The position numbers and the translations under genes are program-made. Positions 15,999 to 18,257 of a stretch of DNA of 18,257 nucleotides are shown one piece after another; the stretch's first letter is position 1; every line of letters begins with the position of its first letter. The stretch is taken from the IMG/VR virus record IMGVR_UViG_2600254997_000004; one strand, written 5' to 3'. This stretch comes from a virus (taxonomy: Duplodnaviria > Heunggongvirae > Uroviricota > Caudoviricetes). The notes beneath the pieces were generated by a model. The model did no database searches, was not told the DNA's origin, and worked only from the letters and a program-made list of their open reading frames with translations.

Positions 15999-16492
15999 TG
16001 CTGCCCCCACAAACAGACTTCACGCTCAATATCACGACGGGTCATCAGCCCTTTCCATTGCTTACCGCCAGCGTATGTCCAGCGACGTAGCTGGTCACAT
16101 GCGCCTTTGATATCACCCTGGTTTATTTTGCGAAGAAGCGTCGATGTTCTGAAATTACCAGCGCCCACGTTGTAAACGAACGAGTAAAGAGCGCCGCGCG
16201 TTGTTTCCGGTATATCGACTTTGATGTACGGGTTAATTTGTCTGGCGACCATGGCAAGGTCTTTATTCAGGAGGGCTTTGCATTCTGCTTCGGTATACGT
16301 TTTACCGGGAATGATGTCTTTTCCGGTGTGTCCGTGACATACAGTCCATACGCCAACGATATCTTCGTATGGTATGTAGCTGACACCTTCCTGGCCATCG
16401 TCACCACTCGGACCAGTGATGAGCACAGACGCTATGGCAACAGCCCCACCACCAATAGCAGCAGCAACAGCCTTGCGTAATGATGGCGACAT
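15995..16492 (-). CDS. R: SAR endolysin (phage 21 R-like lysozyme)
   Basis: N-terminal Gly/Ala-rich SAR segment ([20 protein letters not shown]) followed by a lysozyme core ([16 protein letters not shown]); very similar to R21 as I recall it. Confidence 0.9.
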
Positions 16493-16707
16493 TATTCACC
16501 TCTCGCAGCCTTACGCTTATCTTCTTTAATCTTGAAATAAAGGTTTGTCAGATACGTCAGCAAGCCAAACACCAGGCTACCCAATACGCCTATTGCCACC
16601 CACTGGGATGGGGAGACTTTGTCCAGCAACTGCAGTAGCCAGTATCCCGTCCCCACCGCTGACGTGGTGTATGACACACCTGTTGTTATTTTTTCCATCT
16701 GGTACAT
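16492..16707 (-). CDS. S: Pinholin (phage 21 S-like) with dual-start motif
   Basis: [10 protein letters not shown]...[40 protein letters not shown] resembles S21; Met1 and Met4 give 71-aa and 68-aa forms; GGGAG upstream of the ATG at 16707. Confidence 0.9.
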
Positions 16708-16807
16708 ACCCCGTCTCCCGTTATCCGGAAGCTGACAACAATAAAAAGCCACCAGTTAATTCCTGATGGCCCTGATGCATAAACGTCATAATACCTGACT
16801 GTTATGA

Positions 16808-16935
16808 TTGACAATAATGATAATGTTTATATAGAAAGGTTCCCGATGTGTGTTACATATCATTTCTCCACGGGGAATATCCCCACGCCAGCGCAGACTC
16901 TTTTACCCGTTCTCTTCTGCGCTGGCTCTTTTTTA
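16808..16935 (+). ncRNA. Candidate small RNA: sigma70-like promoter (TTGACA-N16-TATAGA, 16808-16835) plus two stem-loops and a U-tract terminator (to 16935)
   Basis: -35 TTGACA at 16808-16813 and -10 TATAGA at 16830-16835; hairpin GGGGA-ATA-TCCCC (16872-16884); perfect 11-bp inverted repeat GCCAGCGCAGA/TCTGCGCTGGC (16887-16926) followed by TCTTTTTTATT; antisense to the tR'-to-S spacer. Confidence 0.3.
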
Positions 16936-17115
16936 TTATGCTGCTGCATTTACCTCTGGCACCATGCTTTCTATCTCAACACAATACGTGGTACTTCTTG
17001 TAACCAATATCATAACGATTAATCGACATAGAATTTCTCCCGTGTACAGGAACAGAGTTAAAAAGCCGGAACCGGAATCAAATCACAGGATGACCATCTG
17101 CCAGTGGCAGGTCAT

Positions 17116-17142
17116 AAAAAAAAGGCCGCGCCATGCGCAGCC
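17116..17142 (-). terminator. Strong intrinsic terminator (tR'-like) about 410 nt upstream of the holin gene
   Basis: Minus-strand RNA GGCUGCGC-AUG-GCGCGGCC (8-bp stem) followed by 8 U; its position relative to S mirrors lambda tR'. Confidence 0.7.
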
Positions 17143-17296
17143 AGAACTCACAAGGAAAATGATAGAAGGAAATAACATTAGTGATGTACGCATGGCGCCT
17201 CCCGCTAAGTTCTGCAATGATCAAACAGAATTCGCTACGTGCCCTTAAAACTCAATCATTTAGCCCCTCCAAGGAGGATTCACCATGCGGTTGATT

Positions 17297-17325
17297 TTTT
17301 AATAAACAGTAAACAAAAAAGTCAA
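17297..17325 (-). promoter_or_regulatory. Candidate late promoter (pR'-like) about 170 nt upstream of the tR'-like terminator
   Basis: Minus-strand TTGACT (plus 17320-17325) followed after 15-16 bp by TATTAA/ATTAAA; AT-rich upstream; spacing to the terminator is like the lambda pR'-6S-tR' arrangement. Confidence 0.3.
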
Positions 17326-17865: not shown

Positions 17866-18257
17866 CTGATGAATCCCCTAATGATTTTTATCAAAATCAT
17901 TAAGTTAAGGTAGATACACATCTTGTCATATGATCAAATGGTTTCGCCAAAAATCAATAATCAGACAACAAAATGTGCGAACTCGATATTTTACACGACT
18001 CTCTTTACCAATTCTGCCCCGAATTACACTTAAAACGACTCAACAGCTTAACGTTGGCTTGCCACGCCTTACTTGACTGTAAAACTCTCACTCTTACCGA
18101 ACTTGGCCGTAACCTGCCAACCAAAGCGAGAACAAAACATAACATCAAACGAATCGACCGATTGTTAGGTAATCGTCACCTCCTCAAAGAGCGACTCGCT
18201 GTATACCGTTGGCATGCTAGCTTTATCTGTTCGGGCAATACGATGCCCATTGTACTT
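17866..18257 (+). mobile_element. IS10 (IS4 family, Tn10-type) outside end and 5' portion; continues beyond the window
   Basis: From 17866 the sequence reads CTGATGAATCCCCTAATGATTTTTATCAAAATCATTAAG..., which I recognise as the IS10 terminal inverted repeat, followed by the IS10 transposase start; abrupt junction with the AT-rich island. Confidence 0.85.
17973..18257 (+). CDS. IS10 transposase, N-terminal part (truncated by window end)
   Basis: ATG at 17973 (IS10 bp 108) opens MCELDILHDSLYQFCPELHLKRLNSLTLACHALLDCKTLTLTELGRNLPTKARTKHNIKRIDRLLGNRHLHKERLAVYRWHASFICSGNTMPIVL, open to the end of the window. Confidence 0.85.
   Translation, partial: MCELDILHDSLYQFCPELHLKRLNSLTLACHALLDCKTLTLTELGRNLPTKARTKHNIKRIDRLLGNRHLLKERLAVYRWHASFICSGNTMPIVL

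Follow-up and report, generated by a model that had tools for sequence, protein, structure and literature searches.

A plus-strand element upstream of a lambdoid-prophage holin gene corresponds to EcOnc32, a probable trans-acting small RNA related to Esr41

The stretch of DNA analysed here (IMG/VR record IMGVR_UViG_2600254997_000004, Caudoviricetes; 18,257 nucleotides (nt), hereafter called the window) represents the late region of a lambdoid prophage, lying on the minus strand, and carries on the opposite strand, at 16842-16935, a short unit that coincides with the gene of EcOnc32. With a probability of roughly 0.7, we regard this unit as the gene of a prophage-encoded, Hfq-dependent, trans-acting base-pairing small RNA (sRNA) and as a diverged relative of Esr41. 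Host mRNAs, entC among them, are the most likely targets of EcOnc32, rather than the lysis genes of the phage. The sRNA gene as such is not new, since it has been named, with Hfq-binding data and a northern blot, since 2014. An initial annotation, which was made from the sequence of the window alone, had proposed at this position a plus-strand sRNA gene with its own promoter and terminator; the identical sequence indeed yields an abundant Hfq-bound RNA that is detected on a northern blot, which shows that genuine sRNA genes can be recognized by a reader who has nothing but the sequence.

Identity with EcOnc32 and published data on the identical sequence

The part of the window between 16576 and 17230 is 100% identical to prophage Sp3 of Escherichia coli O157:H7 Sakai, where 16842-16935 (plus strand) corresponds to 901672..901579 on the minus strand. 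For Sp3, Tree et al. (2014, Table S2, PMC4104026) list a peak of EcOnc32 at Sakai 901574-901662 (minus strand) obtained by crosslinking and cDNA analysis of Hfq-bound RNA (Hfq-CRAC). In this table, EcOnc32 is flagged with a Rho-independent terminator, passes in five of five Hfq-CRAC datasets, and reaches an area under the curve of 64.7 million, which places it second among the orphan Hfq-binding sites in the rows examined, after AgvB1 (77.8 million); the northern band is given as about 112 nt. Sequence, position, strand, and convergence with EcOnc13 are all the same in EcOnc32 and in the window element, without any sequence difference.

The identical element is also carried by prophage PP4 of E2348/69, a strain of enteropathogenic E. 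coli (EPEC), where it is annotated as the start of the coding sequence E2348C_1013. Pearl Mizrahi et al. (2021, PMC8550237) report for E2348C_1013 a baseMean of 2064 and a log2(delta-hfq/wt) of -2.91 (padj 1e-23), i.e., the RNA is about 7.5-fold lower without Hfq; the validated sRNA PasA shows a similar drop in the same study (-2.78). In RIL-seq, which identifies RNA interactions by means of ligation and sequencing, E2348C_1013 takes part in eight interactions, every time as RNA2, the position of the sRNA, and in the four interaction rows considered here the RNA2 fragments end at NC_011601 1060613, which equals window position 16935, the end of the U-tract. In enterohaemorrhagic E. coli (EHEC), the coordinates of EcOnc32 in RNase E crosslinking, ligation and sequencing of hybrids (CLASH) are listed as 901660-901579 (Waters et al. 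2017), and this 3' end likewise maps to the end of the U-tract.

For the identical sequence, it has thus been published that the RNA exists and binds Hfq very abundantly, that its normal abundance needs Hfq, and that it ends at the predicted terminator. Hfq binding, lower abundance without Hfq, and a terminator with a U-tail, by which the class of Hfq-dependent trans-acting sRNAs is recognized, are all found for this sequence, the terminator being readable in the sequence itself and the published 3' ends lying at the U-tract. EcOnc32 ranks among the most abundant Hfq ligands in both EHEC and EPEC, yet RefSeq calls it a protein.

Organization of the promoter-to-terminator unit

The unit is composed of the following elements (SL, stem-loop; bp, base pairs):

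16808-16813, plus strand: -35 hexamer TTGACA of the sRNA promoter, read directly in the sequence
16830-16835, plus strand: -10-like hexamer TATAGA after a 16-nt spacer, read directly in the sequence (TATAAA in variants)
16795-16800 and 16819-16824, plus strand: overlapping alternative promoter CTGACT / GATAAT, listed by a consensus scan
16842-16935, plus strand: sRNA gene EcOnc32, predicted length about 91-94 nt, from identity to Sakai, RIL-seq and CLASH ends, and a covariance model
16845-16861, plus strand: 5' stem-loop SL1 (GAUGUGU / ACAUAUC), from RNA folds
16862-16871, plus strand: single-stranded seed AUUUCUCCAC of 10 nt, anti-Shine-Dalgarno, unpaired in the fold of every variant
16872-16884, plus strand: stem-loop SL2 (GGGGA AUA UCCCC), from folds, with a homologous hairpin in Esr41
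16887-16934, plus strand: intrinsic terminator with an 11-bp stem, an 18-nt C/U-rich loop, and the tail UCUUUUUU, from sequence and fold

The promoter elements, the short hairpin, and the inverted repeat with its U-tract, on which the initial annotation was based, are all present where they had been located. The inverted repeat is perfect, GC-rich, and 11 bp long (GCCAGCGCAGA at 16887-16897 and TCTGCGCTGGC at 16916-16926), and it is followed by TCTTTTTT at 16927-16934. The folding check that had been proposed was favourable: RNAfold predicts for 16842-16936 three hairpins with -34.9 kcal/mol, as compared to a mean of -15.8 +/- 2.9 kcal/mol for shuffled sequences, none of 200 of which matches the energy of the unit (z = -6.6). 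The covariance model match spans 16842-16935. The alternative promoter possesses the better -10 hexamer in the variants and would give rise to an RNA of about 104 nt.

A consensus scan for promoters and terminators lists neither the TTGACA/TATAGA promoter nor the terminator with the 11-bp stem, because the -10 hexamer has no T at position 6 and the loop of 18 nt exceeds the limit of the scan, such that the scan counts neither for nor against the unit. Promoter-like sites in this AT-rich region are not enriched over shuffled sequences (6 found, 6.0 expected), and at the sRNA site no tRNA, no tmRNA, and no Rfam family at gathering level was found. The sequence alone is therefore suggestive and not decisive; since the scans do not single out the unit, the case rests on the z-score of the fold, on conservation and covariation, and on the published data for the identical sequence.

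Conservation and distribution

The element is found in 603 of 5426 complete E. coli genomes, in 565 of them with at least 99% identity and in the remaining 38 in a more diverged form, as well as in one deposited phage (Evi) and, by clustering, in 71 of the 75 IMG/VR contigs fetched. The variants have the same orientation and are situated upstream of lysis genes, some of them downstream of stx2 and convergent with a bona fide STnc100 (130-149 bits). A search of species-representative genomes with a degenerate 17-base pattern returned almost only chance matches in unrelated phyla, plus one Shigella Esr41.

With respect to conservation in related prophages, which had been named as a check of the sRNA, the -35 hexamer, SL1, seed, and SL2 are nearly invariant. 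The -35 hexamer TTGACA at 16808-16813 is invariant across all intact variants and aligns with a TTGACA upstream of Esr41, and all intact variants fold alike. Across the variant types, the 40 nt that make up SL1, seed, and SL2 contain 1-3 differences, with 0-1 in the seed AUUUCUCCAC itself, whereas 13-29% of the positions in the promoter spacer and 43-48% of those in the downstream flank are changed. In the alignment of nine distinct sequences fitted to the model, 94.5% of the cells are paired, as compared to 31-54% with the pairing partners slid, and six pairs are changed on both sides, a number that is reached by 1 of 500 shuffles. Changes on both sides concern three of the seven pairs of SL1 (across the variants and Esr41), and the terminator stem exhibits compensatory changes from C-G to U-A in variants.

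In some Stx2 prophages (L007, 1542-1900; L008, 1473-1837), an Esr41-like sRNA and a bona fide STnc100 (130-141 bits) are located convergently, directly downstream of stx2B. The copy in L008, a Stx2i phage, is without promoter and SL1, shows no stable fold (z = +0.4), and is treated as decayed.

Relationship to Esr41

In a low-stringency Rfam search, the window element yields a full-length match to Esr41 (RF02676) at 16847-16936 (plus strand) with 32.3 bits (E 6e-4), which lies below the gathering score of 102 bits. The same model gives 108.6 bits for true Esr41 and 29.8-39.3 bits for the window element's variants. From the -35 hexamer to the U-tract, 76 of 104 aligned bases (73%) are identical between the window element and Esr41; the alignment score of 42 corresponds to z = 8.7 relative to dinucleotide shuffles, the best of which reaches 26. 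Reciprocally, a covariance model built from window-type sequences only finds Esr41 at full length (27 bits, E about 1e-4), and independent minimum-free-energy folds give the same three-hairpin layout in all intact variants and in Esr41.

Common to both RNAs are the TTGACA promoter, a 5' hairpin, the single-stranded seed (in Esr41 as UUUCUCCA), the GGGG/CCCC hairpin, the GCC(A/G)GC terminator, and the U-tail. There are also differences: The terminator loop comprises 18 nt in the window element but only 7 nt in Esr41, and the sequence of SL1 differs. Furthermore, Esr41 (EcOnc14) adjoins iha in the SpLE1 island of O157 (O-island 43/48), whereas the window element is situated in the late region of a lambdoid prophage, with PasD on one side and the holin gene on the other. 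Concerning their partners, entC is documented for the window element and chuA, cirA, and bfr for Esr41. Esr41 is an Hfq-dependent sRNA with iron-related targets in RNase E-CLASH; it represses chuA, cirA, and bfr and affects ler and fliC.

Judged by sequence and predicted fold, the window element is a diverged relative of Esr41 and, by the Rfam threshold, not a member of that family. Esr41 matches in cmscan are described as frequent near PasD in the preprint by Zhu, Shabalina and Storz (2026), but PasD loci are otherwise treated there as standing alone.

Host partners and proposed mechanism

Four of the eight RIL-seq interactions of E2348C_1013 are considered here, as given in the interaction table of Pearl Mizrahi et al. 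(PMC8550237). The start-codon region of rpoS is the most frequent partner (537 chimeras), followed by the 5' untranslated region (5'UTR) of entC (263 chimeras, p 4e-165), a region of an nleB pseudogene (72), and the 5'UTR of dnaK (28). The rpoS partner region is located at NC_011601 3102402-3102473 on the minus strand. An RNase E-CLASH hybrid between the entC 5'UTR and EcOnc32 is listed for EHEC (Waters et al. 2017); its mRNA half is identical to the annotated upstream sequence of entC, and its sRNA half contains the seed segment. In vivo ligation of EcOnc32 to the entC 5'UTR has thus been recorded with Hfq as well as with RNase E. This link between EcOnc32 and entC appears in two independent interactome studies, in supplementary tables only.

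According to RNAduplex, the seed AUCAUUUCUCCACGGG pairs with UUUGUGGAGGAUGAUA of entC, from the Shine-Dalgarno sequence up to the AUG, with -16.3 kcal/mol, an energy that about 2 (0.4%) in a set of 500 shuffled targets also reach. For the Shine-Dalgarno region of dnaK, the predicted pairing amounts to -12.0 kcal/mol, equalled by 3% of shuffled targets. Apart from the seed, the C/U-rich 18-nt loop of the terminator might represent a second pairing site for rpoS.

The best-supported model, to which predicted pairing and chimeras point, is that of a trans-acting sRNA, associated with Hfq and RNase E, that would occlude ribosome-binding sites, entC foremost. In the lysogen, the RNA would be transcribed from the TTGACA promoter, convergently with PasD/EcOnc13, and would be loaded on Hfq by its terminator hairpin and U-tail. 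The single-stranded AUUUCUCCAC between SL1 and SL2 would then pair with Shine-Dalgarno regions, most clearly that of entC and perhaps that of dnaK, and such pairing would block translation and recruit RNase E. The prophage would thereby retune the iron acquisition of its host, as Esr41 does via chuA, cirA, and bfr.

A more specific version of this model, to which we give slightly less than an even chance, is that an Esr41 relative was copied between the non-lambdoid island and the lambdoid moron slot and represses enterobactin synthesis via the ribosome-binding site of entC; it may additionally influence, in cis, that part of the late transcript which precedes the holin gene. If enterobactin synthesis is repressed in this way, EcOnc32 would constitute another case of prophages rewiring host iron uptake, and about one in nine complete E. 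coli genomes (603/5426) would carry a phage-borne override of siderophore production.

Alternative explanations

Several observations weigh against EcOnc32 being a trans-acting relative of Esr41 with the promoter described. The experimental data come from other strains with the identical sequence and not from the window's own host, and chimeras report proximity on Hfq or RNase E, not repression. In the searchable literature text, no functional characterisation, 5' end, or target of EcOnc32 was found, nor was any reporter, deletion, or compensatory-mutation test; its publication consists of a table row only. The northern band of about 112 nt exceeds the length of 91-94 nt expected with TTGACA/TATAGA, and the 5' end, and hence the promoter, is a prediction; moreover, TATAGA is devoid of the T that is usual at position 6. 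The score of the element falls short of the gathering level for Esr41, the pattern by which some of the variants were collected prescribes part of the seed, and nine distinct sequences are a small sample for covariation counts. Finally, the seed UUUCUCC was considered as an explanation of the rpoS and nleB-pseudogene partners as well and was rejected, the respective duplexes being no better than those with shuffled targets.

The initial annotation had assumed that the RNA is antisense to the late operon and could modulate late or lysis gene expression. In such a scenario, the RNA, or the transcription from its promoter, would damp or time holin and lysis expression on the Q-antiterminated late transcript, possibly beside a role in trans, either by duplex formation and cleavage by RNase III or by convergent transcriptional interference. 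The geometry alone allows this: The gene is situated opposite the late operon, with its -35 hexamer about 100 nt upstream of the holin start codon, such that a read-through late mRNA carries a perfect complement of about 94 nt, located about 130-230 nt upstream of the holin start on the Q-modified transcript. In addition, convergent sRNA pairs recur at this site in many lambdoid prophages, and RIL-seq target sites of PasA, the positional analogue, lie in the adjacent esterase gene, at its 3' end. However, the partners recovered are host transcripts (entC, dnaK, and the translation-initiation region of rpoS), and the proposed control of late and lysis genes has thus found no support. No partner from the late operon was seen among the RIL-seq rows examined or in the CLASH row, which is a weak argument because the cultures were uninduced and the late transcript scarce. 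Most of the conservation falls on a short single-stranded seed and on the hairpins at its two sides, a signature of trans-acting RNAs that is not needed in cis, and Esr41 in the non-lambdoid SpLE1 keeps the same body with nothing equivalent opposite. From this conservation pattern and the location of Esr41, a role in trans is favoured, and regulation in cis appears unlikely.

We consider it still less likely that the main job of EcOnc32 is to titrate a core sRNA, i.e., that it is an anti-sRNA sponge like AsxR or AgvB. Its genomic slot is that of the anti-sRNAs in Tree et al. (2014), and its heavy loading on Hfq is accompanied by few significant partners (8 interactions vs about 808,000 other chimeric fragments). 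AsxR and AgvB (Sp5, Sp10, and Sp17) likewise stem from convergent sRNA genes, which occupy the moron site of lambdoid prophages downstream of PR', and Hfq carries them in very large amounts. These sponges for FnrS and GcvB belong, however, to an unrelated sequence family of 51-60 nt with a conserved 42-nt 3' region, whereas EcOnc32 has an Esr41-type body of about 91-112 nt, and its position gives no AsxR or AgvB match in Rfam. Among the RIL-seq rows examined, no sRNA partner was seen, and the best-supported partner is the ribosome-binding site of an mRNA. A functionless by-product, in which the left-over bidirectional terminator of a deleted esterase gene and a fortuitous promoter produce an RNA that sticks to Hfq, is very improbable. 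In its favour, the terminator, like the sequence that directly follows it, is homologous to the esterase 3' end in the PasA and PasC loci, and no published phenotype was found in the searchable literature; against this stand the -35 hexamer, SL1, seed, and SL2, which are far better conserved than the flanks, the compensatory changes in the stems, the same body kept in Esr41 with its proven targets and phenotypes, and the entC partner recovered in two pathotypes by two methods.

Least credible of all is the explanation that the RNA signal is merely the mRNA of a real protein gene, which would be the following open reading frame (ORF):

16850-17248, plus strand: 132-amino-acid ORF, WP_012578864.1 (ECs_0817 / E2348C_1013), annotated by RefSeq in hundreds of genomes

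Apart from this widespread annotation, the evidence contradicts a coding function: The ORF starts inside EcOnc32, crosses its terminator and the esterase remnant, and runs antisense through PasD and its terminator, whereas the 3' end of the RNA, at 16935, lies about 85 nt inside the ORF. In variant loci, the ORF is frameshifted or truncated, and a Pfam search of the overlapping plus-strand ORFs gave nothing above threshold, the sole match scoring 18.8 bits vs 27. WP_012578864.1 is almost certainly spurious as a protein, in agreement with the initial annotation, which had taken the overlapping ORFs for non-coding.

Comparison with PasA and PasC

The organization at this site resembles that of PasA and PasC of EPEC E2348/69, which occupy the same slot in the same orientation, on the strand opposite to the holin gene and directly upstream of that gene, and which are Hfq-dependent, as is EcOnc32. 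What the window element has in common with PasC and with a second unit at the PasA locus is confined to the GCCAGCG...CGCTGGC terminator and the esterase 3' end that lies downstream of it. That the RNA body itself is homologous to PasA and PasC was considered and rejected, the z-scores (0.8-3.1) and model E-values (0.07-0.13) being not significant.

The second unit at the PasA locus was observed downstream of PasA in prophage PP2 of E2348/69 (L003, 2745-2900, minus strand). It extends from promoter to terminator (TTGACA, about 70 nt, GCCAGCG...CGCTGGC, and U-tract), its terminator is homologous to those of PasC and the window element, and it corresponds to the 'minor' PasA species of 236 nt ending at 743264.

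Loci of the PasD1 type are treated as being without a PasA/PasC partner in the preprint by Zhu, Shabalina and Storz (2026), whereas in the window this slot is filled by the sRNA described here. If this holds, PasD1-type loci described as lacking that partner carry a different sRNA in its place.

Genomic setting

The following features flank the sRNA gene:

16492-16707, minus strand: class II (S21-like) holin gene, first of the lysis cassette, from the ORF list and the RefSeq annotation of L001
16745-16773, minus strand: terminator-like hairpin (11 bp and T-run) on the late strand, flanked by the sRNA promoter and the holin start, from a consensus scan
16936-17004, minus strand: left-over 3' end of a sialate esterase gene of the nanS-p type (ancestral moron), from Blast and translation
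17116-17288, minus strand: PasD1 / EcOnc13 sRNA (STnc100-like), the convergent partner, from PasD1 alignment and probe match

The locus called L001 is nearly identical to the window (99.7% over window 16700-17300). The holin gene is followed by the endolysin gene and a spanin gene. The hairpin at 16745-16773, which has an analogue at the same place in the PasA (L003) and PasC (L004) loci, may shield the lysis cassette from read-through without Q modification.

PasD1 of E2348/69 is identical to window 17288-17116 at 169 of 173 nt, and its northern probe matches the window exactly. A match to STnc100 (RF02076) at 17113-17318 (minus strand) reaches 32.5 bits and thus stays below the gathering score of 47. 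PasD/EcOnc13/STnc100 is a neighbour of EcOnc32, encoded on the other strand and without relation to it in sequence family; the two sRNAs are oriented with their 3' ends towards each other, at a distance of about 180 nt. In Sakai, EcOnc13 is located at 901332-901382 on the strand opposite to EcOnc32, and convergent sRNA pairs downstream of PR' are described for eight O157 prophages, including Sp3 (Tree et al. 2014, PMC4104026).

The label tR', which the initial annotation had used for the terminator preceding this region, is doubtful: The hairpin at 17142-17124 (minus strand) is the terminator of PasD/EcOnc13, which the consensus scan lists; PasD/EcOnc13 is a separate sRNA with a promoter-like element of its own (TTGACT-18-TAAAAA at about 17325-17296), and its region probably does not represent the PR' leader. 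In L001, an intact relative, a promoter-like site and a terminator are situated directly after gene Q (4818-4735, minus strand), and this pair looks more like PR'/tR'.

Concerning the esterase remnant, Blast matches 16936-17004 to the 3' ends of esterase/yjhS genes at 81-82%. The minus-strand translation VEIESMVPEVNAAA, followed by two stop codons, aligns with the C-terminus of the sialate O-acetylesterase, VEIESLMLEINAPAA, followed by one, over about 20 codons, in frame and with a deletion of 3 nt. In related prophages, the esterase moron separates PasD from the holin-proximal sRNA; as only about 20 esterase codons are left in the window, the moron has been deleted in this lineage.

At the right end of the window, a full-length match to RNA-OUT (97 bits) at 17911-17980 (minus strand) indicates an IS10 / ISVsa5-type element extending from 17897 to the end. 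This IS10 is inserted in a homologue of the membrane-protein gene ECs_0816, between gene Q and PasD, and its junction was found in only two complete genomes, both of O111:H11 strains, at 98.6% identity.

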